Source of the DNA: a cyanobacterium endosymbiont of Epithemia turgida isolate EtSB Lake Yunoko
GTDB lineage: Bacteria; Cyanobacteriota; Cyanobacteriia; Cyanobacteriales; Microcystaceae
Direction: 5' to 3'
DNA: 32,000 bases
Assembly: GCF_000829235.1 (NCBI RefSeq)
Contig: NZ_AP012549.1
Coordinates: forward strand, 900,001 to 932,000
Positions 7,409 through 31,336 of the stretch are shown piece by piece. How positions within the stretch are numbered: position 1 is the stretch's first letter; each line of letters begins with the position of its first letter. The notes under the pieces were generated by a model. The model searched no databases. It was not told where the DNA came from and was given only the letters and a program-made list of their open reading frames with translations. Both the position numbers and the translations under genes were made by a program.

Positions 7409-8602
7409 TTATCCCAAATATTTAGAACTAAGGCTATTTTTTTTCCAGTCAATGGGTAGATGAATGTCTCCTAATAGCATGGGCTGTTTTCCCCCAGTTA
7501 CTTGAGGTAAGTTACCCGATATACGATAAAAAAAACGCCAGTAAGCTAGGACACTAAAAGCAATAGATTCTTTGAAGTCTGTGCTAATTCCGAGATCATT
7601 GGTAGTCATAATTCGGGAATTAAGTAAGTGTTGTTGTAATCGTTTGGCCAAATATTGATTACGACTTCCTCCACCACATAGTAGAATCTCATCAATAGGT
7701 TTATTAATAAATTGGTGATAGCTATCGGCAATTGAGGCGGCTGTCAACTCTGTTATGGTGGCTAACCAATCTTCGTTTGTGAGATGACACGTTTGTGCGT
7801 CTTGCCAACATTGTTCTAGATAAACATAACCAAATAGTTCTCGTCCCGTTGATTTAGGTGGTGGTTGTTGAAAAAACTCTTGTTTTAGCCATTTTCGTAC
7901 TAATGGTTCACAGGGAGTCCCCTGAGAGGCCCATTCACCATTATTATCGTAGGTTTGTTGGCCATTGGTCAATTTTTGAACGGCTAAGTCAATTAAGATA
8001 TTTCCTGGACCTGTATCCCATCCACGAATTTTTTGTTCCCAGTGAGGTTGTTGATGAGGAGGGAGATAAGTCACATTTCCAATTCCCCCAATGTTTTGAA
8101 CACAGCGATGGCGGGTAGTATGGCCTAACAGGTATGCGTCAACCTTAGATACTAAGGGCGCACCTTGTCCTCCAACAGCGATATCAGCCGCCCGAAAGTT
8201 ACTGACAGTAGGAATCCCTGTTAAATTGGCAATAACTGATCCTCTCCCCAATTGTATGCTATATCCCAATTCAGTTTTTTTGTTACTTTCCTTAAGGGGT
8301 CGGTGAAAAACAGTTTGTCCATGAGATCCAATTAATTTCACTTGGGGATGGCTTTCTTGAATTATTTTGGCTGCTTGGGCAAAACAATAGGCGACAGAAT
8401 CATCTAATCGGGCAAATTCTTCAACAGAAATTGGTTTTCCTCCACAAACTTCTATTATTTGGGATCTGAGTTCTTTGGGATAGGAATAGATTTCTCCTGA
8501 CAGTAAATTAATTTTTAAGTCTAGTTCTGTTCCGGTAATTTCCACTAAAGCAGCATCAATTCCATCAACAGATGTGCCACTCATTAAACCAATGCAATGC
8601 AT
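7409..8602 (-). CDS. anmK: Anhydro-N-acetylmuramic acid kinase
   Basis: 397 aa. The N-terminal signature GLMSGTSVDGIDAALVEI and the later GGGSRN block are typical of AnmK. Confidence 0.9.
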   Translation of the reverse strand: MHCIGLMSGTSVDGIDAALVEITGTELDLKINLLSGEIYSYPKELRSQIIEVCGGKPISVEEFARLDDSVAYCFAQAAKIIQESHPQVKLIGSHGQTVFHRPLKESNKKTELGYSIQLGRGSVIANLTGIPTVSNFRAADIAVGGQGAPLVSKVDAYLLGHTTRHRCVQNIGGIGNVTYLPPHQQPHWEQKIRGWDTGPGNILIDLAVQKLTNGQQTYDNNGEWASQGTPCEPLVRKWLKQEFFQQPPPKSTGRELFGYVYLEQCWQDAQTCHLTNEDWLATITELTAASIADSYHQFINKPIDEILLCGGGSRNQYLAKRLQQHLLNSRIMTTNDLGISTDFKESIAFSVLAYWRFFYRISGNLPQVTGGKQPMLLGDIHLPIDWKKNSLSSKYLG

Positions 8603-10567
8603 AATTTTGCTCCTAATTACCCAAAAGTTGAGTAAATTATTTTTTTCTAGGGTTCTCTAATTGTGTTTGCCAAGGTTAAATTACCTTATTTATATAATTG
8701 GTGGTGACCATCTGCCGTCTTATCATAAAAATGATAAACAAGTTTATTTGTCATATATTAAGGATGACTTGCATAAGAAAATTTTTCAACATTTTATCGA
8801 TTTTATTAGGAAGATCAAAAAGAAATAATAAGAAAATTTATTTAGCTTATTTCATAATAATAGCTATTTTACATGAAATATCTATTTTTATTGTGGCTAA
8901 GATATTGATATTTTTTTATGTTAGATTTATAGAATGTATATTTTACTAGATTTAGTAAATTTAAGTAATACTAAACCTGTTGTACACAAAGGATCATATA
9001 AGCATAAGGTATGATTATTAATTAAAGGTTAAGTATAAATTATATATAGCATATAAATACTATTTTAGTATGTTTTATATTTAAGTTAAACTGTGTTAAA
9101 TTTAATATTTTAAATTAACTTATATTTCAAACAATAAATACCTAATTTAGTTAAATAAAATTATAAATCCATAAATATCTACTCTATTTAAACTTAATTC
9201 TTGAAAAACTAAAAGACTAAAAAAAATATATTTATAAAATAATTACGAGATATAAATTATAAAAAATGAGGCATAATTAATTACTATATAAGTTTATTTA
9301 AAAGTTAACTTATATTAAAAATAACCGTAAAATTCATAAAAAAATTAAGTCATAAAACAAGAAACATAAATAATGCTTAAAGATTTAATTTAGGATTAAT
9401 ATATGAAAAAAATATACATCCAAAGAGTTGATAATTAATGTAATTACTGTGATAAAAAAAATATTATGTATTATTAGTAAATACAAATCAAAAAGTAGTT
9501 AGAAACTCATATACAAATATTATCAATTAATGCCATAAATTTATGTATTAACATATATATTCTTTGTGAAGAAAATAAGTTATTGATTAAATAATTGGCA
9601 AAAATTATTAATATAAAAATTTAAAAACTTGAGGATACTAGTAAGAAACAAGAAGATTTTAAATTTAAAATCAAGGCTAATATATTTTTTATAAAAAAAA
9701 TTAAGCATGTTTATAAATAAAAAAATAAAAAGTCAAATCAAACCAGATATGTAAAAAATTAGTATTTTTTTCGACAATAACTTAATAATCAATAGAGATT
9801 TAAGATAATTTCTGATAATAACTTATACTAAGTATCAGAACTATCAAAATAGCTAATTAGCGTTAAAAAGCTGTAGTATTATTATGTGTTCTTATCTAAA
9901 AATTACTTATTCTATTTTTTTGCCAAGAAACAATTCAAGGACCAGTAGGAGGGATTTAAAATAAATCTAAGTTGATCAAAATAATAACTTATGGATTCAG
10001 AAATATAGTCAATTTTTAAGGGTTAAGTTTCTTTAATTGATATTTTTCTAGTTAATTTTATATTCTGAATTCAGAATATAAAATTTTTGCGACAGAAGAA
10101 TATCAGTTCAATAATTTAGCTATAATTTTGTTTGGAAAATTCAGTTAATATCTAAGTTAGATAGTGATCGAGTGAATATTATAACTTTTATTCAAAAAAT
10201 AAGAGAAAACGTGGTATTCTCTTCTAGTGATTTATTAAGGAATGAATTTCTGATTAAAACTCAACTGTACTTTTAATTATTTTTTAATATTTTTATAGAA
10301 AGATCATAAAACTTTTTATTTGTTTGACTATTTAGCAATTTAACTATATAAAAATTAGGTAGTTTGGGAAGACAGAGACAAACATACTAATTTAATTATT
10401 GAAAACAACTATTGAGTTAACAATTAAGACTGGATTTAAGTTATTGACAATAAGTAGCTACGGTTCTTTATTCCGAAAGAATAAAAATCAGGAATCAACT
10501 CTGACAATATCTAAAACAAGAAAATAAATTTATATTTAGGAATTACTATTTTTAATAGTACTTAATC
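8603..10567. other. Extremely AT-rich ORF-free tract (about 2 kb)
   Basis: The only ORF is an 83-aa Ile/Phe/Lys-rich artefact. Example count: 8 G/C in the 60 nt at 9181-9240. No GC islands. Contains a 32-bp perfect palindrome. Confidence 0.6.
10054..10085. repeat. 32-bp perfect palindrome
   Basis: AATTTTATATTCTGAATTCAGAATATAAAATT has 16-bp arms with no spacer and is centred on GAATTC. I verified it base by base. Confidence 0.9.
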
Positions 10568-11455
10568 TTAATCAAGCAAAGGCAACAATAAAGTTACAAA
10601 ATAATAGACTAAAGGAGCGGTAAAAACATAACTATCAGTGCGATCTAAAATCCCTCCGTGACCAGGAATTAATTGACCTGAATCTTTTACTCCTGCATCT
10701 CGTTTCATCATTGACTCAGTCAAGTCACCTAATAAGCTAACAATACCGATTAATATCCCTAGCAAAAGTCCAGTTAAATACCCATAGGGCCAAGTTAAAT
10801 ACCAAGCTCCTAATTCAGCAACAATAATACTCCCTAATAGGCCAAAAATTGCTCCTTCAACTGTTTTTTTAGGACTAATATCAGACAGGCGCGTTTTTCC
10901 TAACCATTTTCCCATAATATAAGCTCCAATATCTGCCGCCCAAATACAGCTAAAGGCAATAAAAGTCACCATCAACATAGGGGGAAATAAATTGGGTTCA
11001 GTCCATGATTTAGGCCAAAATCCCATCAATGAGAAATTATTACTAGTAATATTCACCGTGGGAACTGTATTGGCAAACCCGACCCGTAATCTTATCCAGT
11101 AACTAGGTAAATACCCCCCATAAAATAACCCTAAGATAGAGGTTGAAATATCAGCAATAGTGGCTAGTTTAGATTGGAATAATAAGTAAAAACAAATTAA
11201 AGCCCCTGTTAAAGGAAATAGGGCATCGGTGAGGGGAGGGGCTACAGCAGCAGTGATTAATAATACTTGAGACACTACTAAGGTGGTTTTAGCAGCAGGG
11301 ACAATACCTTTTGCCCGGACTAATTGAAAATATTCTAATTGTCCTAAGAAAACGATTAGACAAAGCCCTAGGGTGAAATACCACCCTCCAACGATGAGCA
11401 TAGTTAAGGCAAGGGTAATGGTAACAATAGTACTGATAATCCGAGTCCAAGGCAT
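10568..11455 (-). CDS. cdsA: Phosphatidate cytidylyltransferase (CDP-diglyceride synthase)
   Basis: 295 aa, multi-pass membrane protein. Signature SMMKRDAGVKDSGQLIPGHGGILDRTDS. Confidence 0.92.
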   Translation of the reverse strand: MPWTRIISTIVTITLALTMLIVGGWYFTLGLCLIVFLGQLEYFQLVRAKGIVPAAKTTLVVSQVLLITAAVAPPLTDALFPLTGALICFYLLFQSKLATIADISTSILGLFYGGYLPSYWIRLRVGFANTVPTVNITSNNFSLMGFWPKSWTEPNLFPPMLMVTFIAFSCIWAADIGAYIMGKWLGKTRLSDISPKKTVEGAIFGLLGSIIVAELGAWYLTWPYGYLTGLLLGILIGIVSLLGDLTESMMKRDAGVKDSGQLIPGHGGILDRTDSYVFTAPLVYYFVTLLLPLLD

Positions 11456-11631
11456 AAGTTAGAGTGACATTTAGGTGAAAAGATCAAGAAATTCTTATAA
11501 AGGAAAAACAAATGTCTATGAAAAATTAACGAGTTCTCTTATCTCTAATCGTATAAATCTTCTGAGGATGAAAGCAGCTTAACTTGAATTATAAAAAATG
11601 TTTTCACGTTACCAACTTCTTCACTTAGAGA

Positions 11632-12222
11632 TTAAAACTTTTCTCCACTCAGAATAAAACTAGGATCAACAGCAGCAAAAACCTGATGAAGTCCTCTAGT
11701 CTCTAGACGATTTACTCCTGATTGAACAACTTCTATGTTACGCGCTTGTAGTGAGGCTAACCCTTCGGCAATCAAATACAGGGTTTCTAGACTACTTGCG
11801 GTGGCTATTAACCTACCTTCAGGCTTTAAAAATTGCCAAGCTTCTGTCACGATATTTTTAATTGGCCGGCCCCCTTCGATACAAATGCGGTCAGGCAAGG
11901 GTTGCAATTGGTCGAAACATTCAGGTGCACTACTTTCAAAAATCGTGACATTTTTAACTCCAAAGCGATCACAATTATTGCGAATTAGTTTTACCACGTC
12001 TTCGTCTCGTTCGACAGCAATGATAGTACTTTCAGGGCATAGTAAACCAATTTCTACGGGAATCGTACCTGTTCCTGCACCTATGTCCCAAAGAATTGAG
12101 TTAGCATTAAATCGTAGAGCAGAAATTAACAATAGACGAACTTCTCGTTTACTTAGGGGAATTCCCGGAAAGCACTCGAAAAGATGATCCGGAATACCAG
12201 GAGTCTTGTGAGGCCAAAGCAT
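11632..12222 (-). CDS. cbiT: Precorrin-6Y C5,15-methyltransferase (decarboxylating), CbiT subunit
   Basis: GIPDHLF..PLSKREVR and the SAM motif ILWDIGAGTGTIPVEIG. The ORF is open to 12306, but the conserved sequence begins at Met 12220-12222 (MLWPHKTPGIPD). The upstream 28 codons look like a non-conserved extension. Confidence 0.8.
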   Translation of the reverse strand: MLWPHKTPGIPDHLFECFPGIPLSKREVRLLLISALRFNANSILWDIGAGTGTIPVEIGLLCPESTIIAVERDEDVVKLIRNNCDRFGVKNVTIFESSAPECFDQLQPLPDRICIEGGRPIKNIVTEAWQFLKPEGRLIATASSLETLYLIAEGLASLQARNIEVVQSGVNRLETRGLHQVFAAVDPSFILSGEKF

Positions 12223-12317: not shown

Positions 12318-13418
12318 TTAGTTTAACCAATGACCAAATTCTTCTATGAACCGATCGCCTAAAATAGCTTCTCGAATGCGTTGAGTAAATCTCACTAATT
12401 CCGTAATGTTGTGTAGGGATAGAAGGGTATATCCTAACATTTCCTGCGATCGCACTAAATGATTTAAATATGCCCGGCTAAAAGTCTGACAGGTATAACA
12501 AGGACAATCAGCATCAAGGGGACCAAAATCCTCGCGAAACTGGAAATTTTTTAGATTCCAACGTTCTCCTCTCACTAATGCAGTTCCGTGGCGGCCAAAA
12601 CGAGTAGGAATGACACAGTCAAATAAATCAATCCCGGACGCGATTGTTATAGCCATCTCCCGATAAGTCCCTACTCCCATTAGATAACGAGGTTTAGTTG
12701 CTGGAAGCAAGGGTGCGGTAATTTGCACAATTTCTCGAATTAAAGCTGGTTCTTCCCCTACACTAACTCCTCCAATAGCATATCCTGGTAAATCGAAGTC
12801 TATCAAAGACTTAGCTGCTGATATCCTTAATTCTGGATAAATTCCCCCTTGAACAATGCCAAACAAAGCTTGATCCTGGGGACGTTGGTGAGCATCAATA
12901 CACCGTTCTAACCAACGATAGGTACGTTCAGTGGCTGCTGCGACCGTTGAATAATCTGCTTTACCTGGAGGACATTCATCAAAAGCCATAATCACATCAG
13001 CTCCCAAAGTATTTTGAATATGTATTGAACGTTCGGGAGTTAATTCAATAATTTTTCCATCCCTAGGAGAACGGAAAGTTACGCCAATTTCTCGAATATG
13101 GCGTAACTCACTGAGACTAAACACTTGAAATCCACCAGAATCAGTTAGAATTGGACCTTTCCATCCCATAAACTGATGTATTCCCCCTGCTTTTTCGATC
13201 AGGGTTTCTCCGGGTTGCAAATGTAGATGATAAGTATTGGCTAAAACCATCTGTGCTCCCGTAGTTTGCAGTTGAGCGGGGGTTAGCCCTTTCACTGTTG
13301 CTAGGGTTCCCACAGGCATAAATCGAGGAGTTTCTACCGGTCCATGAGGGGTGTGCCAAACTCCGACTCTAGCGAGAGTTTGACAACATTTTTTTTGAGT
13401 TTGAAAAGAAAATCTCAA
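12318..13418 (-). CDS. tgt: Queuine tRNA-ribosyltransferase
   Basis: Motifs [34 protein letters not shown] and the zinc site CPCYTC...H. The ORF has no ATG upstream of the conserved region. The start is assigned to TTG 13416-13418 ([10 protein letters not shown]...). The track ORF runs to another TTG at 13556. Contains a perfect HIP1 at 12446-12453. Confidence 0.9.
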
Positions 13419-13581
13419 AGTTACTATAAAATATAAAGTTAACAGAATCACTCCATTGTAACTAAGTAGTTGACATTGATATAGAAATCCAAATAGTTTT
13501 CGAGCAAAAAGTTTAATCACGAGTTTCCTTATTAAACTTTTTAAGAACTCAATCAAAAAAAATTGTCCTCAAGCAAAAAGA

Positions 13582-15330
13582 GTAGAAAATAGATGTGGTA
13601 CGCAAAGTGCAAACCCAGATACTATTGTTGTCATTATTACCATCGAGAATTCCTTAAATTTTAGAGATAAGCTAGGATATTTTTGTCTAAGGGCGATATT
13701 GAGTTTCTACAATATATTAGAGTATCTTAATATTGATGCTACAACCATTCCCTAAGTTATCTAAACCCTATGCTTTAGCCAGGGCATAAGCTCCTTAAGA
13801 AAAGAAAATATCAATCTGTCAGTCTTCTGATAGTAGGCGAACCCAGGAAAAGAGCTCTGATGATTAGCTAAGATAAAAATAGGGATAAGCAAAAGTAAAA
13901 TAGAGAAAAGACTATGAGTTCGGTAAACTTTATTATTTTATTTCTTAAAATGAGCAATTTTTTTTGTATTTAAATGATAAAATTTCTGCTCCTATTTTCG
14001 TTTCTAAAAAAATTTTTAGGTCACGAGTCAATTTTTATGGTTCTTGCTCTTCTAATTGAGTTAGCTATTTTTTAAAGTAGGCTGATATCCAATTACTTAG
14101 ACATAAATAAACAGTACTGCGTTAATGTGTATTTTAGGATTAAAAGTGAGCATTATAAATAAATATAAAAATGAATATATTAACAGAGTGAGCTATAAGA
14201 ACTCGAACTAACTCATATCATCTTCTTCTCATTTAAGAGTTTTGCTAAGGTCCAAGTAAGAAAGGACTTTATTTGAGTCAAGTTAAGCTTAAAGAATTTT
14301 AAAAAAAATCAAAGATAGAGCTAGGACAATACAATTGCTAGCAATAAGTAGGAAGATGGAGAAAATATAATTTATTTAAAATGGACTTATTTGACAATTC
14401 GCACAACAATTTATTAATGGAATAAAAACAGTCCTACAGGAAGTACGAGATACTTCGTAAAATCGTAAAAAAATATGTTTAAAATATCTAGATTAATTAG
14501 ACTTTTGTCTGTAATAAACAGTCATTTTTTTAATTTAAAATAAAGGAATATAAAATAATTTAACAGACTTAGAAAAAATATGTAGCCTATATCAACTGAT
14601 ACAAGTATTCTACTTTAAATTAGTTTTAAAGAGTTTAACAAGTAAAATATTATAATGAGTTTTTTGAATTAAAAATAAATAGTAAATAATTAAAAATTAT
14701 ACTATTCCTTTCCTTACTTAGGATGCAAAAATAATAATTTCAAAAACACAATTTAATTTTTAATATACAAATTTTTAATAATCAAATTTTAATATATAGA
14801 TACCATTCATTATGGTAGATTATCTTTTATCAAAAAACTATGCTATATTCATTTAATTTTAACTTATTAGTTGAACGAACAAAATCTTATCTTAGACAAG
14901 AGTGAAGTGGTTTTCTTCATCTTTATTGAAGTTAAACTTTTTAAAAACTTCATCACAATAATAAATTAAATATTAGAGATATACTTATGGTATAGATCGT
15001 CGTCAAATGAGATATGATTAATTTGTTAAAAAATCCACATAAAAGAAAGCTAAACCTTTATCTAACTAAGTTAAAAATTAGTGTCGAATTTAGGCTAGCT
15101 GATGTATCTATCAGTTCCGAACTTTGTTTAAGCTTCTATAGTTTTGTTTGTTTATGTTCGACTACTTAGCGGTTGCTCTTTCTTTAATTATTTGTCTATT
15201 TTGGAACTCACTGATCTAGTAGTTTATTCCAATGTCCTAAGCCTAAAAAAAGATTTTTCTGAACAAACATTAGTCAGAAAAAACCCTTTCTTAATTCGTA
15301 GATAATAGTCACTAAACTAGGGAAATAGTT
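13582..15330 (-). pseudogene. Decayed tandem paralogue of the adjacent SLH/OprB porin
   Basis: The minus-strand translation of 13590-13700 reads VETQYRP*TKIS*LISKI*GILDGNNDNNSIWVCTLRTT. The intact porin C-terminus reads IEAQYQYPITKNILLTPGFYVVLQPEGNNDNNSIWVGALRTTFKF. Nucleotide similarity continues around 13780-13850 (intact about 15600-15670). It reappears at 15000-15135, colinear with the SLH-domain codons of the intact gene (16770-16880). There are many stops and indels. The upper boundary is approximate. Confidence 0.7.
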
Positions 15331-15374
15331 AAAATCTGAGATAAATTAGATTAACTAAATCGGATTAACTGAGT

Positions 15375-17123
15375 TTAGAATTTAAAGGTGGTTCGTAAAG
15401 CCCCAACCCAAATACTGTTATTGTCATTATTGCCCTCAGGTTGAAGAACAACATAAAAACCAGGAGTTAGCAAAATATTTTTGGTGATGGGGTATTGATA
15501 CTGAGCTTCAATGATGTAAGGAATATTCTGGTCAGGAACTTGCAAATCTCCAGTAATGGCATCAACCCGTTGGGTATGGGTAAGAGCACCGCCGGCAAGG
15601 GAAAGAATAGCTCCTTCCTTAAAGACGTCAACGACGTTAAGGGCTGCCATCCAGGACCACAAGTCAGCACCAAAACCGCGACGACTGTTTTCATCTTCGT
15701 CAACCCCTTGGGCACGCCCTAATCCATAGCCTACCCAACCGGTTAGGTTAAACATATGATTGATACGCCAGTTACCGTTAGCTCCGTAAGCATCAAGAAT
15801 CGTCGGGGTTTTTAAGAAAGGATCACTAGCTAGTCCGCTACCGGTGCTAGAAGTCAAGTTGACATGATCCTCTTTGTAGTAAGTGTGTAGGTAGTGAAAG
15901 TTCAAGGCAAGATTGTCAGTTGGATAAAATCCAAGTTGACCCCCTGCGCTGAAGTTACCATTAAATAAACCGCTTCCTAGTTCAGGATTAGCACCGTCAT
16001 TACTAGGGGTCAAATAAAGCCCACGAAGGGTGAACATATCATTTAATTCATAGGCAAAACCGGCACCAATACCTTCTTCACCCCGCATAGTTATAGGATC
16101 ACGACGGACAAATCTTGACAATGCCCCAGTTCCTGAACTTTTTAGGAATGGGTTTCCTTCATCAAAAATATCATCTATATCTAGAGAGTTACCTCCAACA
16201 TAACCAGTGAAGTTACCGATGGGAAAACGGTAGTACAAGTTTTCAATGTTAAGGTCAGCATCGCTGTTAACATCGTGTCCTAACCGTGCCATATTAGTCC
16301 CTGTGGCACGACTTAAGTTAAAGATAGTTCCTGCTTCAAGACGAGTAATTAGTCTATCCTTTCCGTTAAAACTAGCATCTAAGTTAAGACGAGTCCGATG
16401 ACCAAAGGTCACGTTATCGTCAATACGTCGCCGTGCGTCTGTAAATCTACCGTTTTGCAAGTCTTGGTTAAACTCGTCTCGCTCACGAGCGTCTAAAGCT
16501 CGTTCCCCTGATGCAGAGGAGATAGTAAACAGTACTTCCCCTTTTAACTTGGTGGTAGTGGAAAACTGATGATTTTCGAGGAACGCTATCCTATGTTCGA
16601 GGTTATAAACTCGTGCGCCTAAGGCGATTAATTCTTGTTCAAATTCTCGGGTTAATCGCTCTAGTTTTTCAATGTCTTCTCGTAAAACAGCAACGTTTTC
16701 TTGTAAGAGTCGTTCAATGGTATTCAAACAAGCATTTAAGCCAGCTGCAAATTCCCAACGACTGGCAGCCCGGTCGCCTCGGAAATTTCGATCAGGATAA
16801 CCGACAATACAACCATAGCGTTCAACTAAACTTGATAAAGCTTCATAAGTCCAGTCAGTAGGGGATATATCCCGTAATTCCGAAACGTTGGTGACTTGGA
16901 AAGTAGAAGTAACAGATTTACGCTTAAAAAGACTACGATTAACGTAATTTTCTAATTGGGGACGATTCCGTAGAATCTCTAAAGCTTCTGTCGAGTTTAT
17001 CATATTGGGGTTAGCTGTTTCTATCTCCGTTTCTGGAGATGCGACCACCCCTTGAGCAACTGAACATAGAATTCCCAAGACCCCTGGGGTTGCTTTGAGC
17101 ATTTGACTAAAGAATCGTGACAT
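15375..17123 (-). CDS. Outer-membrane porin with N-terminal SLH domain (OprB/carbohydrate-selective porin family)
   Basis: 582 aa. Signal peptide, SLH domain (SPTDWTYEALSSLVERYGCIVGYPDRNFRGDRAASRWEFAAGLNACL), a coiled-coil linker, and a Gly/aromatic-rich beta-barrel ending in the C-terminal Phe (LRTTFKF). Confidence 0.9.
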   Translation of the reverse strand: MSRFFSQMLKATPGVLGILCSVAQGVVASPETEIETANPNMINSTEALEILRNRPQLENYVNRSLFKRKSVTSTFQVTNVSELRDISPTDWTYEALSSLVERYGCIVGYPDRNFRGDRAASRWEFAAGLNACLNTIERLLQENVAVLREDIEKLERLTREFEQELIALGARVYNLEHRIAFLENHQFSTTTKLKGEVLFTISSASGERALDARERDEFNQDLQNGRFTDARRRIDDNVTFGHRTRLNLDASFNGKDRLITRLEAGTIFNLSRATGTNMARLGHDVNSDADLNIENLYYRFPIGNFTGYVGGNSLDIDDIFDEGNPFLKSSGTGALSRFVRRDPITMRGEEGIGAGFAYELNDMFTLRGLYLTPSNDGANPELGSGLFNGNFSAGGQLGFYPTDNLALNFHYLHTYYKEDHVNLTSSTGSGLASDPFLKTPTILDAYGANGNWRINHMFNLTGWVGYGLGRAQGVDEDENSRRGFGADLWSWMAALNVVDVFKEGAILSLAGGALTHTQRVDAITGDLQVPDQNIPYIIEAQYQYPITKNILLTPGFYVVLQPEGNNDNNSIWVGALRTTFKF

Positions 17124-17413: not shown

Positions 17414-18157
17414 TTAACCTCGATATCCAGTAACTATATAAGAAACTCGTTGAGCAATATTGGTAGAATGATCTGCCATTCTTTCTAGGTGACAAATGAC
17501 TAAAGCTAATAAAAGAAACGGTTCAATGACTCCCTGAATATCTCGTTGACAAGCTAAAGTTTGATAAAGTTTTTCATAGGTGTCATCTACCGTATCGTCA
17601 AGTCGTTTAACCTGTTTTCCGGCGTTGCCATCAAGTTCCACTAAAGCAACCAAACTTGTCCCTAGCATCATTTGGGCATGATAGGACATAGTGGCAGCTT
17701 CCTCCATAATAGGATGGGGGGGATAAGAAAGCAATTTTACGGCTATTTTTGCTAAATCTTTGGCATAATCCCCAATTCTTTCTAAATCTCTGACTAATTG
17801 CATGAAGGCGCTTACAAGACGTAAGTCTTGAGCCACAGGGGCTTGTAGTGTCATTAGGCTAGCGCAATCAAGTTCTATCTGTCGGTAGTAGCGATCAACT
17901 TGTCGATCAATTTTAATAATTTTGCCAACTGCGTCTAGATTCTGATTAAATAGGGCTTGATGACTAAGACGACAGGATTCTTCTACTAAAGTTCCCATTC
18001 GTAATATTTCTTGTTTTAGTCGTTTGAGACATCGTTCGAAGTGAGTACGTTTAGGGTGATTATTATAATACGATAGGTTCACAGGACTTCTTGCAGAAGA
18101 AAGACAAAAGGTATTTGAACAAAAGTTAAAAAGGAGATCTAACGACACCTTGCCCAT
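17414..18157 (-). CDS. phoU: Phosphate transport system regulator PhoU
   Basis: Two PhoU repeats with LVRDLERIGDYAKDLA and ICHLERMADHSTNIA. The N-terminus is about 25 aa longer than typical, so the true start is uncertain. Confidence 0.88.
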   Translation of the reverse strand: MGKVSLDLLFNFCSNTFCLSSARSPVNLSYYNNHPKRTHFERCLKRLKQEILRMGTLVEESCRLSHQALFNQNLDAVGKIIKIDRQVDRYYRQIELDCASLMTLQAPVAQDLRLVSAFMQLVRDLERIGDYAKDLAKIAVKLLSYPPHPIMEEAATMSYHAQMMLGTSLVALVELDGNAGKQVKRLDDTVDDTYEKLYQTLACQRDIQGVIEPFLLLALVICHLERMADHSTNIAQRVSYIVTGYRG

Positions 18158-18429: not shown

Positions 18430-19310
18430 ATGAACATCTTGACTAATCTTTCCAAACTCCGAAACAATAACCAGAAGGAACTTCCCTCCTTGAAAATAAG
18501 CAATCAAAGAATAGAAACTAAATCTCTCCAAGAAATTGCTATTATGCGCAAATCATCTCAAATTGTAGCCACGGTCCTCAAAGAAATCGAGATGATTGTA
18601 GAACCAGCAATGACAACAGAGGACTTAGATAGATATGCTGAACGCAGAATTAGAGAAATGGGAGCAACCCCTAGTTTTAAAGGATATCATGGTTTTCCTG
18701 CTTCTATCTGTGCTTCCATTAACCAGGAAGTTGTTCATGGCATTCCTAGCCCTATAAACGGAAGGTTCGTGTTGGAGATGTACTTAAAGTAGATATAGGA
18801 GCCTATTTTCAAGGTTATCATGGGGATTCTTGTATCACTATTGCCGTAGGAAAAGTTTCGCCGACAACTTCCCTTCTAATTATTGGAGCCCAGGAAGCAT
18901 TGTATGCCGGAATTGAGTAGGTAAAAGCGGGAAATTATTTATTAGCTATTGCCGAAGCGATCGAAGATAAGGTCAAAGAGTATGGTTATAGCGTTGTAGA
19001 AGATTATACCGGTCATGGTATAGGGCGTAATCTCCATGAAGATCCCTATATTTTTCATTATCGCACTAAGGAGTTGCCCAACGTTAAATTACGGGCAGGA
19101 ATGACCTTAGCCATAGAACCGATTGTCAATAAAGGGTCAAAATATACGAGAAAACTTCGTGACCGCTGGACTGTGGTAAGAGTGGATAATTCTCTGTCTG
19201 CACAATTTGAACACACGGTATTAGTCACACAAACGGGATATAAAATTTTTACAGATCGTACTGCTCTGCTATTTAGCGTTCGGCATTCAGTAGGAATCAA
19301 CAACCGTTGA
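18430..19310 (+). pseudogene. map: Methionine aminopeptidase (type I), inactivated by a frameshift and a nonsense codon
   Basis: Frame 1 (18430-18765) encodes ...[34 protein letters not shown]. Homology then continues in the +1 frame from 18765 ([29 protein letters not shown]...). That frame is interrupted by an in-frame TAG at 18918-18920 ([11 protein letters not shown]). It then runs on to the stop at 19308-19310 ([26 protein letters not shown]). All metal-ligand motifs are still readable. Confidence 0.9.
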
Positions 19311-20806: not shown

Positions 20807-21343
20807 AAGGCAACAATAATTGATACTCAACGCTTGAAGTGTAGATTAAATTAGAATTTTCAGCTTGGAACTGATGAATATTTAGTATACTCGCTATACT
20901 TTAAGCCTCCGCAGCAGCTGAGATACAAATTGCTCTCACATTATTTATTAGTCATTCAACTTATTTTTATTTCATTAGTCAGTCGATTATTAGCAATTAC
21001 AGTGGTTGAGCTTGAGAAGTCGTGCATCAATTCTTTCCCATTATGATTCATTAGGATTAGTGGGAAGTTTGTTTGCTTTATCTATTAAAATTAGTTTGGT
21101 CCGAAGAGTTGTTCTGGTTACTAGAGCTTCCTTTTTGACTATTTTATCTCGAAGATGTTACATAGATAGCTATGGGTATTTTGCATTTAAAGCACCCCAA
21201 AAAAGCAGCTTAATTATTGAAATAATATTGTGCCTAGCCTTTTAAAGTTTCATGGCTTAGCCATGATAGCAGCCCAGAAGTCAGCATTTTAAAGTAAAAA
21301 TTATTACTAAAAAGTAAAGATAATTAATTTTATTAAAGTAGAG

Positions 21344-21380
21344 AAAAATATCTTGATTAAAATAAAAATATCTTGATTAA
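21344..21380. repeat. Tandem duplication, 20-bp period, two copies
   Basis: AAAAATATCTTGATTAA occurs at 21344-21360 and again at 21364-21380. Confidence 0.85.
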
Positions 21381-22199
21381 GAGAATAATATATTTTAACT
21401 ATAAACGATCAATCTTTTACTAGAAAATCATAAATTTAGTTGACTATCGTCGCATCAGGATGTCAGCAGCGTGTGTCTTAAAATTTACTAATCTTTATTT
21501 TTTAAAAAAAGAACTTTTTCTACGGGTTAGGGTAGTTATATTCTTGATATAAATTGCTACGTTTACCAAAACTGTAGATTTATATATAGCCATTAATGAG
21601 TTTTTATTAAGTTCAATAACATAAAATATTTACTATATAAGATAATAAAAAATTAATATCAATTTAGATTGATTAAAGTCAAGTAATATTTAGTAAATCA
21701 ATGATTTATTGTAAAAGTTTGAGATTTTAAAGTTGACTATTTTATTCATTTTTAGACTAGACAATGAAGTGTTAGGTATTAGTACATGTATTTTATTCAC
21801 TTTATGTCTACCGGAGATGCTGAACTATTGAACAATTGTATCTGAGCTCAATATAGAGATTTCAAACAATAATCTTGTTAAGAATAAAAACTAATTGAAC
21901 CAACTATGAAATATCATATTCCTGCAGGTATTTTTCATGGTTTTTAAAAAAATTAGGATTGACTAGTCAGATATATATTTATTTTATGATTACTGTAACT
22001 AAATACGTCTTGTTATCAACAGTTAATTACGACATTGTTTATTAAATAAAACGGTAGAGATTAATCTAAAAAATAATTACCATCAATAGCATAGTAAAGT
22101 ATCTTCCTGTATTATCTAAAATTAGACTAATTCTGTACTGGCAGTAAAATCATCGCAACTAAAGAGTATATAGCTCTCTTTTGTACTATTATTAGTATC

Positions 22200-22248
22200 A
22201 TTTCATTACCATTAGCATAAGTTATACTTATGCTAATGGTAATGAAAT
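22200..22248. repeat. 49-bp perfect inverted repeat (23-bp arms, 3-nt spacer)
   Basis: ATTTCATTACCATTAGCATAAGT-TAT-ACTTATGCTAATGGTAATGAAAT. All 23 pairs were checked individually. Confidence 0.9.
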
Positions 22249-22656
22249 AAAAGGGGTTGTTTCTATTGAGGTCTAAAAAATTGAAAGATTAAATTGTTAT
22301 TTGTCCTAAAAATTATAGATATTTTATTTTTTAATTTAGTATGAATATTTTTTTATTCAATTTATTTAAACACTAAATTTAGTTACTTAAAAAGTTAGTT
22401 AGGTAAATAGATAAAAATTTATTCACTATTTTTTATAGGACAATTTTTTTATTAAATTAAGGAAATTTTTATTCTCTATATTTAGAGAATAAGTGCCAAA
22501 TACATCAAGGCAATATGTTAAACATCTATACCTTTATTAATCTCCAAATATTAGTGAATTTCAGAATTACTGGATAAATATTCATTAATATGAAATTGTA
22601 TTTCAGGTACGGGATAAATTATTTATTGAAAATATAAGCTAGATTGTTTTTTCAAA

Positions 22657-22701
22657 AAATTTAAACATTCTTTGAGGTTATATCAAAGAATGTTTAAATT
22701 T
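22657..22701. repeat. 19-bp perfect inverted repeat with 7-nt loop
   Basis: AAATTTAAACATTCTTTGA (22657-22675), loop GGTTATA, then TCAAAGAATGTTTAAATTT (22683-22701). Confidence 0.9.
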
Positions 22702-23245
22702 ATCTAGTTTTACTCATAATCATACCCTAGGATAAATTACTATCTAAAAATAAATATTTTTCAATAGTTGTTTAAATATTATTTCCCTAGATATCACTTC
22801 CTTAGGAATGTTCAGTATATACCAGGAATAAACTTATGAAAAATTAGCTACTGGATTTTAAATTAAAATAGAACAAAATAAATATTAGAGTATTATTTTT
22901 TCTGTAGTAAAGATAACTGTTTTTACATAATTTTTTACCACAAATAATAGACTAAGACTACATTATATAAAAAACTAATTTTGCTGTCTATCTATATATT
23001 TGACAATCAAAATATCACGATCAACTCTTATATTTAATTTAAAATATTAGTTTTAGTTAAACTCTAATAGATATTTAATTTAACGCCAATATCATTAATA
23101 TTGTATTTTACATAGGTTTTTGCTCTATTTTAAAGTAAATTTTATTTATATAACTAAATAATAGATTAAACTAACTTACTATATTGCTCAACAGGTTTTT
23201 ATGATAATTGATTATAACTTTTTTTTAAAAAAGGTCTATTATAAG

Positions 23246-24040
23246 TCACTTTTTTCCCAGAAAAATATTTATATGATCTCCCCAATTAACTTGTAATTTC
23301 TGTTGAGCACTACCGCCATTGACTGCAATTTCTACCCAGCCATGACTACCGATAAAACTGACTAATTCTTCTCGAGTCACTTCACTATAAGTCAATGCAG
23401 TCTTAATCTGTTGTTTCGCTATTTCAACTGACCAATTATGATCCCTAACTAACTTTCCTGAAATATTAGTAATAAGGTTACCAAAACGGTCAATGTATTG
23501 AATGCAACCATGAACATGGTTAGCGGTTATTATTACTTCCTTAAGGGGCAATTTAATTAAACTATCAGGACTAATACAATTTCCTAAAACGTTGAGAGAA
23601 ATCCCACTGGCTAAATGTGCCCCTACGGGAGCGAAAATATCCCTTCCATGAAAAGTCAAACTGGGATGTCTAACTCTCCAATAATTAGGGTTTGTCAACT
23701 CCACCGCGACGATTGCCTCAGATAAACTCAGAACACCGCCAAATAAGCCGTTGTCAGGTCCTACCAAATACCCTTGAGAAAATTGAATCGCAACCCCTCT
23801 TCGTCGACTTCCTACTCCTGGATCGATAACCGCAACATATACCGTTCCATTCGGGAGGAAAGAATAAGCATTCATCAAACAAAACCGTCCGGCGGCAATA
23901 TTCTGGGGGGGGATTTCATGGGCAATATCGATAACAGTCAAGTAGGGGTTGATACAGGCGATCGCTCCTTTGATGATTCCTACATAACCATCTTGTAAGC
24001 CAAAGTCAGTTAATAGGGCGATCACAGTCGTATAAGTCAT
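23246..24040 (-). CDS. SAM hydroxide adenosyltransferase family protein (DUF62; fluorinase/chlorinase-like fold)
   Basis: 264 aa. N-terminal LLTDFGLQDGYVGIIKG, VIDPGVGSRRRG and GPDNGL are typical of this family. Contains a perfect HIP1 at 23958-23965. Confidence 0.85.
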   Translation of the reverse strand: MTYTTVIALLTDFGLQDGYVGIIKGAIACINPYLTVIDIAHEIPPQNIAAGRFCLMNAYSFLPNGTVYVAVIDPGVGSRRRGVAIQFSQGYLVGPDNGLFGGVLSLSEAIVAVELTNPNYWRVRHPSLTFHGRDIFAPVGAHLASGISLNVLGNCISPDSLIKLPLKEVIITANHVHGCIQYIDRFGNLITNISGKLVRDHNWSVEIAKQQIKTALTYSEVTREELVSFIGSHGWVEIAVNGGSAQQKLQVNWGDHINIFLGKK

Positions 24041-28309: not shown

Positions 28310-30025
28310 ATGTCCCCCCCCATTCAACCCTTACCTTCAGATGTTGTTAGCCTCATTGCTGCTGGAGAAGTAATTGACTCTCTAGCTGCGGTGGTGCGAG
28401 AGTTGTCCGAAAATGCTCTTGATGCTCAAGCAACTCGCCTAGTTATTTCCCTTTTACCAGAGGCCTGGCGTGTTAAGGTAGCAGATAATGGTGAAGGAAT
28501 GTCTCTTGATGACTTACGCAACTGTGCTAAACCTCACAGTACAAGTAAAATTACTCACTTCAATGATTTAGCTAAGATTACTAGTCTAGGATTTCGGGGA
28601 GAGGCATTACATAGTTTAGCCCAAGTCTGTGAGTTAGAAATTTCTAGTCGTTATTCTATAGACCCCCAAGGGATAGGATGGCATTTACATTACAATAAAC
28701 CAGGAGAACCTATAACAGAAAAACCAACGGCAATCGCCCCAGGAACAATAGTGACTGGATCAAATCTGTTTGTAAATATGCCAGTCCGTCGTCAAGGCTT
28801 ACCTTCCCTCTCGCAACAACTCAAAGAAGTACAAGCAATTGTTGAAAACCTCGCTTTATGTCATCCTCAGGTAAATTGGCAGGTCTGGCACAATGAGCGA
28901 TTGTGGCTTAACATTAGTCCAGGGAAAACAGCTCAGGATATTTTACCTCAACTCCTTAAACAGGTTCATCACCATGATTTACAATTCGTTTCACAACAGG
29001 TGAAAATTTTCGATAATTTTGGTTTGCAATCCTTGGAAAAGGCGCAATCAATGGGTTTCCCCTTACCTCCATTAGAAAAAAACGGATTAGTCGAAGTTAC
29101 TTTAGGATTGCCTGATCGCTGTCATCGCCGACGACCTGATTGGGTCAAGGTAGGAATTAATGGGCGCGTTGTTAGATTACCTCAATTAGAACAGACAATT
29201 TTAATGACTTTTAGTCGAACCTTACCTAAAGATCGTTTTCCTATTTGTTTTCTCAACTTGACTATTTCCCCTAATCACATTGATTGGAATCGCCACCCTA
29301 CTAAGGCTAAAATTTATCTTTATTCCCTTAATTTTTGGAAAAAAAAAATTTCTGAAATAATTGAACAAGGATTACGATTATTTCCTCAAACCCTGTCGAT
29401 AGCGGCTCAAAATCAACGAGTTGAAAAATTACTTAAGAATAAAAATTATAACATTATACCTAACACTTCTAATGAAATTAGATTAATGCCTTTGAAGGCG
29501 GTGGCACAGGTACGCAATACTTATATTGTGGCAGAACATTCAAGTGGATTATGGTTAATTGAACAACATATTGCTCAAGAACGAGTGTTGTACGAAAAGT
29601 TACAGAGAGACTGGGAATTTATAGGTTTAGATACCCCTATAATTTTAACAAAAATATTAAATTACCAAGTTGAACAATTACAAAGAATTGGGTTAGAAGT
29701 TGAAGAATTTGGTAGGGAAATGTGGGCAGTTCGTACGATTCCTAAAATATTAAGTCGACGCGACGATCTCCAAGATGCTTTAACAGAGTTAAGTTTGGGA
29801 GGTGATTTAGAAACGGCGCAAGTAGCTATTGCTTGTCGTAGTGCAATTCGCAATGGAACTCCGATGAATTTATTCCAGATGCAAGACCTTTTAGATAGTT
29901 GGAGAATAACTAAAAACCCCCGGACTTGTCCTCACGGTAGACCAATTTATTTATCCTTAGAAGATTCTTTTTTATCTCGGTTTTTTCTCCGTCATTGGGT
30001 AATCGGAAAAAGTCATGGAATTTAA
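28310..30025 (+). CDS. mutL: DNA mismatch repair protein MutL
   Basis: 571 aa. GHKL ATPase motifs ELSENALDA, DNGEGM and GFRGEAL. C-terminal endonuclease-type block EQHIAQERVLYE and CPHGRP. Contains a C8 run (28314-28321) and an A10 run (29339-29348). Confidence 0.93.
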   Translation: MSPPIQPLPSDVVSLIAAGEVIDSLAAVVRELSENALDAQATRLVISLLPEAWRVKVADNGEGMSLDDLRNCAKPHSTSKITHFNDLAKITSLGFRGEALHSLAQVCELEISSRYSIDPQGIGWHLHYNKPGEPITEKPTAIAPGTIVTGSNLFVNMPVRRQGLPSLSQQLKEVQAIVENLALCHPQVNWQVWHNERLWLNISPGKTAQDILPQLLKQVHHHDLQFVSQQVKIFDNFGLQSLEKAQSMGFPLPPLEKNGLVEVTLGLPDRCHRRRPDWVKVGINGRVVRLPQLEQTILMTFSRTLPKDRFPICFLNLTISPNHIDWNRHPTKAKIYLYSLNFWKKKISEIIEQGLRLFPQTLSIAAQNQRVEKLLKNKNYNIIPNTSNEIRLMPLKAVAQVRNTYIVAEHSSGLWLIEQHIAQERVLYEKLQRDWEFIGLDTPIILTKILNYQVEQLQRIGLEVEEFGREMWAVRTIPKILSRRDDLQDALTELSLGGDLETAQVAIACRSAIRNGTPMNLFQMQDLLDSWRITKNPRTCPHGRPIYLSLEDSFLSRFFLRHWVIGKSHGI

Positions 30026-30907
30026 TAAAGATAGAAGTCAACTCACTTTTCCATAAAGGGAAATGATAAATCATAAGTTAGATTTATAGTTAGTTCTTCT
30101 CATTACTAAATTAAATCTAATTGAGATAACATTTACTTTTTCTAGGGTTTTCTTACAATACTTTTATGTTATTCTATCTCAAATTTAGTTGTAGGGTTTC
30201 CGTGTTTGAGCAAATATTTATGATATTGACCCTTTGCTTTTATTCAAACATGACAAAATCTTTTCTGTGTTAACTAGTATTTGAAGCCATTTCACTTCTG
30301 GTTTAAGAAGTTTTCTTTTACTATCTATTTGAGTGTTAACTTGTTTAAGCAGGTTAAATATATCTGTTATTACTTCAGCTTATAGCATTAATTTGTTTGC
30401 CGCAACATTACTAGAAGATTTATAAAGACTTAGCCAAACTTCTTAAATCTTGGTTAAAACTTTTTTCTTGCATACTTATAGCTATTTTACTATTTGTTTA
30501 TATATTCTTTTTTCTCTAATTCTATGCTCACTTCTTCATTCTCTAATTACAACAATTTCATCTTCAATGGCTGAAATTTTTCACCTGCAATTTTTTACGT
30601 ATATCATTGAGTGTTCTTTTGGTCTATTGTCTATCTACTTTATTTCTTTTGTCCACATTTTTAATATCATTATTTAAGAGATATTTAATCGCTTTTATCT
30701 TATAACTTTCACCTCTTGAAAAATTAGCTCAACTCTTCTACAACAGAATTAACTCTCAATTATTAAACTTTACCAGAAGATCACAACATCTACTGCTCGA
30801 TTTTTATTGAACAAACTTTTGTTCTGTCTTACGCGACCTAATCGAGGCATTCATAAGATTCTATTTTTATTACCTACTTCAATAAAGAAGCTAATCTTTT
30901 TATGACT
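30026..30907. other. ORF-free AT-rich tract with a possible unidentified gene remnant
   Basis: The only ORF is a 75-aa hydrophobic TTG-start ORF of junk composition. The minus frame 30185-30442 is unusually open (see findings). Confidence 0.45.
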
Positions 30908-31336
30908 TTAACCTTTCTGTTTATGATGACAAACTTGAATAACAGTATGAACATTTCCCCTAGGATTAAAGTCTCCTTTTAATACTATTTCTAGTGGATC
31001 GCAAGCTACCACAAAATCGTCTAGGATTTGGTTGATTGATTCTTCATGAGAAATATAGAGATCACGGTAGCCATTAATATACAATTTTAATGCTTTTAAT
31101 TCAACCACTTTTTCATCGGGAATATAGGTTAAATAAAGGTTAGCAAAATCGGGATAACCAGAGAAGGGACACTTACAAGTAAACTCAGGTAAAGTAATAT
31201 TGATGTCATACCGTCGACCTGTACGAGGATTAGGAAAAGTGATTAATTTCCCTTCTTCAATAAACTGTTCCCCATATCTAATCGCCGAAGAATCAAACTT
31301 AAAATTAGAAGCTTGAGAATTAGTAACTTGATTCAT
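30908..31336 (-). CDS. queF: NADPH-dependent 7-cyano-7-deazaguanine (preQ0) reductase, type I
   Basis: 142 aa. Catalytic-Cys context [16 protein letters not shown] and the QueF motif region [14 protein letters not shown]. Confidence 0.9.

Follow-up and report, generated by a model that had tools for sequence, protein, structure and literature searches.

What remains in the AT-rich DNA between tgt and an intact SLH/OprB porin gene in the cyanobacterial endosymbiont of the diatom Epithemia turgida, and how much of it was once a gene? The endosymbiont is the "spheroid body" (SB) of a rhopalodiacean diatom, also termed a diazoplast, and the window analyzed here is a stretch of 32,000 nucleotides of its genome (contig NZ_AP012549.1, positions 900,001 to 932,000). 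An initial annotation, made from the window alone, had read the tract as the full-length remains of a second porin gene. Our analysis indicates instead that the tract is very probably nonfunctional, neutral DNA in which only positions 13585-13864 are a gene remnant, left by a tgt-linked porin of the P0025 type that died before the sampled SB lineages diverged and was then eroded by AT-biased substitution and deletions.

Organization of the locus

On the minus strand, the gene order is phoU (17414-18157), the intact porin gene (15375-17123), the AT-rich tract, and tgt (12318-13419), which encodes queuine tRNA-ribosyltransferase and is the conserved neighbor downstream of the dead porin. The start codon of tgt was identified as the TTG at 13417-13419, the same as in the Rhopalodia gibberula endosymbiont (RgSB), and an in-frame extension of tgt up to 13556 showed no conservation. 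Because tgt starts at this TTG, the true AT-rich tract spans 13420-15374, or 1955 bp. The tgt protein of the window is 93% identical to that of RgSB and approximately 83-84% identical to Crocosphaera tgt.

The intact porin ORF encodes 582 aa and represents a "B-type" paralogue whose homologues carry the Pfam domains PF00395 and PF04966; SLH/OprB porins with these 2 domains are called "iron uptake porin" in NCBI naming. This porin is conserved in 6 SB genomes, with 83-93% amino acid identity, and its nucleotide identity to the RgSB copy is 93% overall and 84% at 4-fold degenerate sites. Tandem porins in free-living relatives, which the initial annotation had anticipated, were identified as phoU-porin-porin arrays in Cyanothece sp. 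UBA12306 and Crocosphaera sp. UHCC 0190. Of the 2 porins in the Cyanothece array, the second is 77% identical to the intact porin of the window and the first 65% identical. The second Cyanothece porin is separated from tgt by a DUF29 gene and not by a third porin.

A porin relic upstream of tgt

A tblastn search of the tract with the intact porin returned a single significant match, in which residues 486-582 of the porin aligned at 35% identity (E 1.9e-8) with 13585-13860, read in a minus frame that is interrupted by stops. The peptide reads VETQYRP*TKIS*LISKI*GILDGNNDNNSIWVCTLRTT, exactly as quoted earlier, and the readable porin C-terminus reported from this frame was thereby reproduced. At the nucleotide level, the relic was 65% identical to the neighboring gene over 144 nt (blastn), and alignment of 13585-13860 with the 3' end of the intact gene scored z = 8.6-16.5 above 300 block shuffles. 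The nucleotide similarity noted earlier around 13780-13850 was also recovered and lies inside the relic. When the tract was searched for repeats within the window, the match between the relic and the 3' end of the neighboring gene was the only one found. A profile HMM built from 121 porins and searched in all 6 frames matched the window only with its positions 504-579 (E 2e-6), and the general Pfam OprB model gave no match at E <= 1 on the six-frame translation.

The relic (13585-13864, minus strand) corresponds to codons ~430-586 and aligns to the C-terminal beta-barrel strands of cyanobacterial SLH/OprB porins, including the terminal ...NNSIWVG.LRTTF.F motif. It is interrupted by in-frame stops and frameshifts, and its longest ORF is 43 aa, compared with the ~580 codons of a functional porin. 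Approximately 92 codons of the stretch ~430-586 are kept, whereas ~67 of ~159 have been deleted, through at least 3 internal deletions of ~111, ~28, and ~16-20 bp. Neither the window nor any of the 4 sister tracts described below matched HMM positions 1-227, the region of the signal peptide, SLH domain, and coiled-coil linker, and Pfam gave no SLH match. Although its homology to the OprB beta-barrel is evident, the relic is not a functional SLH/OprB porin, as it lacks an uninterrupted reading frame of ~580 codons, the SLH domain, and, in the window, the N-terminal 430 codons. Only ~280 of the 1955 bp of the tract in the window are porin derived.

Identity of the lost gene

Every relic piece from every SB genome scored best against a third porin group (P0025, P0022, P0029, and P0035-37), with example scores of 103 bits against the P0025 group and 71-80 bits against neighbor-type porins. 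The relic of the window is 74% identical in nucleotides to the P0025 gene, compared with 65% to its own neighbor. The blastn matches to the P0025 gene reached 73.7% over 156 nt and 70% over 67 nt, and the tblastn match to the P0025 protein (E 6e-7) covered residues 540-586 at 53% identity, with a weak additional match at residues 435-447 (E 0.95).

The intact P0025 porin ("porin C") is encoded in GCA_002110465.1 (L090), where it is followed by 873 bp and then by tgt on the same strand, L090 being the only free-living genome with this linkage among those compared. The relic lies on the same strand and in the same position relative to tgt. The spacer between the former stop codon of the relic and the tgt start (13420-13584, minus strand) measures 165 bp in the window versus 873 bp in L090, and a 42-nt piece of the L090 spacer (11914-11956) can be aligned with window positions 13540-13581 at 83.7% identity (blastn). 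The tgt protein of L090 is 90.7% identical to that of the window, the closest among the free-living genomes compared.

Paralogue scores, nucleotide identity, and tgt synteny together mark the relic as orthologous to an old porin paralogue of the P0025 type that is linked to tgt. The relic lies in tandem with the intact porin without being a recent copy of it. The fragments behind the paralogue assignment are short and decayed, though 5 independent pieces agree on it. The initial annotation had called the dead gene a tandem porin paralogue, which holds in that a dead paralogue lies on the same strand between the porin and tgt, but the gene is not a copy of its neighbor. A recent tandem duplication of the neighboring porin was considered and rejected, the adjacent gene not being the closest relative of the relic by either nucleotide identity or bit score. 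With an intact syntenic orthologue in a relative (L090), disabling lesions, and approximately neutral evolution under the mutational bias of the genome, the relic has the attributes of a unitary pseudogene.

Three porin paralogue types can be separated in this group, 2 linked to phoU and 1 to tgt, and the endosymbionts compared keep only 1 of the 3 at this locus.

Timing and mode of decay

We aligned the relics of the 5 SB genomes with 2 intact orthologues (L090 and L091). In the window, a premature TAA stop (13727-13729, minus strand) occupies the site of a CAA codon (Gln, ~codon 537) in the intact orthologues, and the same site reads TAA or TGA in all 5 SB genomes. A -2 frameshift, a +1 frameshift, and a GG-to-AA change are likewise common to all 5 relics, and a 6-bp deletion is common to 4 of them. 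The ~111-bp and 16-20-bp deletions are common to the window and RgSB, and the 28-bp deletion is the window's own. The stop and frameshifts found in all 5 relics argue that the gene was dead in their common ancestor, before the sampled SB lineages diverged. With these lesions common to all 5 lineages, the earlier suggestion that this loss was more recent than that of other tracts found no support.

Substitutions were counted at sites with the same base in both intact orthologues, which stood in for the ancestral sequence. Of the GC sites, 0.34-0.37 had changed to AT (0.62 in Cyanobacterium sp. uoEpiScrs1), and of the AT sites, 0.12-0.17 had changed to GC; for the relic, the values were 0.37 and 0.12 per site, respectively. 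The bias toward AT is approximately 2.7-fold per site, in line with the GC-to-AT excess expected of the relic at the outset. The GC content of the relic is 0.35, compared with 0.44 in the orthologues, and the substitution rates predict an equilibrium GC content of ~0.26, within the range of 0.15-0.34 observed in the rest of the tract. Where well aligned, the tract was 0.69-0.90 identical between the window and RgSB, and the relic itself 0.76-0.83, compared with 0.83 at the pooled 4-fold sites of the flanking genes. Since identity to RgSB is approximately at the level of 4-fold sites, the tract, relic included, evolves approximately neutrally. The sister genomes show that most of the pseudogene was lost through deletions, which differ by lineage and range in size from 16 bp to ~1 kb.

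These patterns indicate that the orthologue of the P0025-type SLH/OprB paralogue, which L090 keeps immediately upstream of tgt on the same strand, was inactivated before the SB divergence, the CAA-to-TAA/TGA stop and the -2 and +1 frameshifts being common to all sampled lineages. Substitution with GC-to-AT changes ~2.7 times as frequent per site as AT-to-GC changes followed, and lineage-specific deletions took away most of the gene. Deletions extending into the tgt promoter would be deleterious, which may be why the 3' end has been kept.

Porin pieces in sister genomes

Equivalent spacers in 4 other SB genomes proved homologous to the tract and, block by block, colinear with it. They are those of RgSB (2323 bp), Cyanobacterium sp. 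uoEpiScrs1 (~1734 bp), an ENA assembly (L088; 1223 bp), and the SB of E. clementina (EcSB; 1155 bp). A partly masked copy is also present in the R. inflata SB, where the locus consists mostly of masked Ns and was of marginal use only. No intact gene was identified in the homologous tracts of the SB genomes compared.

Some of these tracts hold porin pieces that extend beyond the relic of the window. In EcSB, a mid-gene piece matching HMM positions 228-264 (RRFADDNSILGYQLHYILNTSFTGDDLLDTRIKSGTS, E 7e-7) directly abuts a piece matching positions 511-579, with ~250 codons lost between them, and the mid-gene piece is 74% identical in amino acids to residues 221-259 of P0025. The RgSB tract contains pieces matching HMM positions 427-477 and 513-579, plus a 50-nt stretch that is homologous to the start of the EcSB mid-gene piece and has been deleted in the window; ~190 codons have been lost between the 2 RgSB pieces. 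The ENA assembly retains HMM positions 467-578 at 62 bits and, in a frameshift-tolerant profile chain, an extra piece at ~384-409 with a score reached by 0 of 100 shuffles. These mid-gene pieces indicate that the ancestral pseudogene spanned at least codons 221-586, more than a 3' duplication would comprise.

Codons 1-220 left no trace in the 5 genomes when probed with the general profile, a paralogue-specific profile, and the closest intact orthologue. The surviving parts are 68-72% identical in nucleotides to an intact orthologue in 4 of the 5 genomes and 56% identical in uoEpiScrs1. With that much identity left, any N-terminal stretch of equal age that had escaped deletion should be easy to recognize, so the N-terminal 220 codons were probably deleted and not merely changed beyond recognition. 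N-terminal segments of 10-15 bits returned by the chain dynamic program were discarded as noise, as they fell at nonhomologous positions across genomes and were matched by shuffles.

The remaining 1.5 kb

The non-relic part of the tract (13865-15374, GC 0.15-0.34) contains no detectable coding remnant and can be divided into 2 blocks. Block I (14655-15374) mostly aligns in EcSB and only in parts in the ENA assembly and uoEpiScrs1. Block II (~13933-14654) has been deleted in EcSB but occurs in the window, RgSB, uoEpiScrs1, and the R. inflata SB. Given this distribution across SB genomes, which includes the outlying uoEpiScrs1, both blocks are ancestral. No repeat signal was detected in either block within the window. 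We identified no similarity of 13865-15374 to the 121-porin profile or to the closest intact orthologue, frameshift-tolerant searches included, and the frameshift-tolerant profile chain on the non-relic tract did not rise above shuffles. A search for other dead genes in this 1.5 kb gave no Pfam match in 6 frames. In tblastx comparisons of the tract with more than 80 tgt- or porin-anchored loci of free-living cyanobacteria, including DUF29, GAF-kinase, glyQ, and GH38 neighbors, only porin matches were obtained, all of them inside the relic. The 1.5 kb would be older decayed sequence (e.g., other lost genes) or ancestral spacer at AT equilibrium. A part of it could be porin derived if that part decayed much earlier or evolved faster than the relic.

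Block I and the last ~200 bp of the relic have been kept in all 5 genomes, with other parts variably deleted, a pattern that might instead reflect a present function of the 1.5 kb or the relic, as a conserved noncoding RNA or as a promoter or other control region of tgt or the porin. A stretch at 14332-14497 that is 82-84% identical among 3 genomes could be taken the same way. However, identity in the tract is never meaningfully above the neutral 4-fold-site value of 0.83, and 14332-14497 was rejected as a functional element for this reason. Searches of Rfam at the gathering threshold and at E <= 1 identified no family in the tract, a snoU30 match (E 0.74) being spurious; no tRNA or terminator-like sites were found in it, promoter-like sites were fewer than in shuffles, and block II has been wholly deleted in both EcSB and the ENA assembly. 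A present function is accordingly unlikely. Exaptation of the pseudogene DNA is also improbable, and to the same degree, whether the relic or the ~165 bp after it now carried the promoter or 5' region of tgt or the 1.5 kb hid a conserved element.

Length and colinearity of the dead gene

The initial annotation held that the whole 1.8-kb tract is the body of a tandem copy of the neighboring porin, preserved at full length and colinear with it, that decayed fairly recently under AT bias with little deletion. The terminal relic is real, the distance from its stop to the stop of the neighbor is 1790 bp, near one gene length, and both tandem porins in free-living relatives and AT-biased decay are borne out by our data. 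However, when positions 13861-15374 were aligned with codons 1-485 of the intact porin, the scores stayed at chance level, with global z-scores of -0.30 and +0.09, a local z-score of approximately -0.7, and 145-268 of 300 shuffles reaching the observed score. Nor did the non-relic 1.5 kb outscore shuffles when compared with the porin profile or the closest orthologue, even though the surviving part is still ~71% identical to the orthologue in nucleotides and an undeleted part of the same age would be easily detected. The 4 short strings cited as similarity at 15000-15135 to the SLH codons do exist (14995/16772 and 15111/16874), but the region as a whole is at chance level.

The agreement between the length of the tract and that of the intact gene (1749 bp), on which the same proposal had drawn, is a coincidence, since the tract is 1955 bp long and the sister tracts range in length between 1.16 and 2.32 kb. 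Measured from the neighbor's stop, the codon-221 piece of RgSB is 1.75 kb downstream, ~0.8 kb beyond what colinearity with a single gene would permit. Little deletion is contradicted by the losses within the relic and in the sister genomes, and descent from the neighbor by the closer similarity of the relic to P0025; the lesions common to all lineages give no support to a recent death. A full-length, colinear remnant is therefore very unlikely.

A short duplicated 3' end of the neighboring porin that was never a whole gene would fit the confinement of similarity to the terminal ~280 bp, the result that had been named beforehand as speaking against a full-length remnant and that does hold within the window alone, but this origin is still less probable, to the point of being negligible, given the mid-gene pieces at the same locus in EcSB (codons 221-259), RgSB (427-477), and the ENA assembly (~384-409 and 467-578), the greater likeness of the relic to the P0025-type porin than to the neighbor, and the intact P0025-type porin at the same position upstream of tgt in L090.

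Comparison with known genome decay

The remnant of the tgt-linked porin and the DNA around it belong to a known phenomenon. Spheroid-body genomes carry 225-286 pseudogenes per genome (Nakayama and Inagaki 2017, PMC5638926), and their low coding density has been attributed to remnants of degraded genes in intergenic regions (Abresch et al. 2026, bioRxiv 10.64898/2026.03.19.712447). The published genomes show high synteny and no active mobile elements. Like the published pseudogene spacers of the same group, the tract is AT rich and gene poor and holds degraded fragments lacking an ORF, and it does not differ from them in kind. The locus is one more instance of ordinary genome decay and has little importance beyond bookkeeping.

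What it adds is detail at the level of a single locus, including which paralogue died, its death before the divergence, and the removal of most of the gene by deletion, not substitution. It can serve as a worked example of how an SB spacer may form, from early gene death through AT drift toward a GC content of ~0.26 and lineage-specific deletions to a fragment that outlasts the radiation. It also carries a caution, in that a match in length to a neighboring gene and a readable relic at the end of an AT-rich tract do not amount to evidence for a full-length dead gene; sister genomes and the true orthologue have to be compared before such a call is made.

Bacterial pseudogenes are reportedly subject to a deletional bias as they decay (Mira, Ochman, and Moran 2001, as cited by Abresch et al. 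2026). Here, too, lineage-specific deletions (16 bp to ~1 kb) account for most of the erosion, and sister genomes differ in how much they have kept. A difference is that removal has been slow at this locus, where fragments have persisted across the endosymbiont radiation, which fits the unusually low coding density of these genomes.

AT-rich tracts and the start of tgt

Outside the dead porin, an SLH/OprB relic at 13585-13864 (minus strand), the best-conserved stretch of the tract between the intact porin and tgt was identified at 14332-14497 (minus strand), with 82-84% identity among 3 spheroid body (SB) genomes and approximately 64% against the further SB genome uoEpiScrs1. This stretch is probably evolving neutrally, as its identity shows no excess over the level at 4-fold sites of the flanking genes (0.83 between the window and the SB of Rhopalodia gibberula). 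Further long intergenic AT-rich tracts, with a GC content of 0.15-0.29, were found at 1-1000, 8500-10500, 21000-23500, and 30000-31000, and these 4 tracts are probably additional decayed-gene spacers of the same kind as the porin-tgt tract.

The tgt ORF, as called mechanically, runs 46 codons upstream (13420-13556, minus strand) past the conserved TTG start at 13419. Because the R. gibberula SB carries a stop inside the matching region, this extension is probably untranslated.

Neighboring genes in SB and free-living genomes

The phoU gene is intact in the window and in the SB of Epithemia clementina. In the ENA SB genome (locus L088, 4953-5681), the phoU gene that precedes the intact porin is broken into 2 ORFs of 131 and 97 aa, and the phoU call in the R. 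inflata SB (locus L086, 5577-5685) has only 35 aa. At the latter locus, tgt was not found within 3.4 kb downstream, a stretch consisting largely of masked Ns.

Among free-living cyanobacteria, tgt of GCA_002110465.1 (NEED01000069.1, 12635-13783) has 90.7% amino acid identity to that of the window, compared with 83-84% for Crocosphaera. In the MAG of Cyanothece sp. UBA12306 (locus L081), tgt was called as 2 ORFs of 183 and 187 aa, approximately 185 bp apart (10674-11972), and a DUF29 gene lies between the second porin and tgt, the place held by the dead porin in spheroid bodies.

Further, a frameshift near 18753-18756 splits the methionine aminopeptidase (Peptidase_M24) gene of the window (18430-19310, plus strand), with residues 1-108 and 109-279 of the E. 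clementina SB orthologue matched in 2 separate frames at 89-92% identity. Either the gene became a pseudogene very recently or the assembly is wrong at this point.
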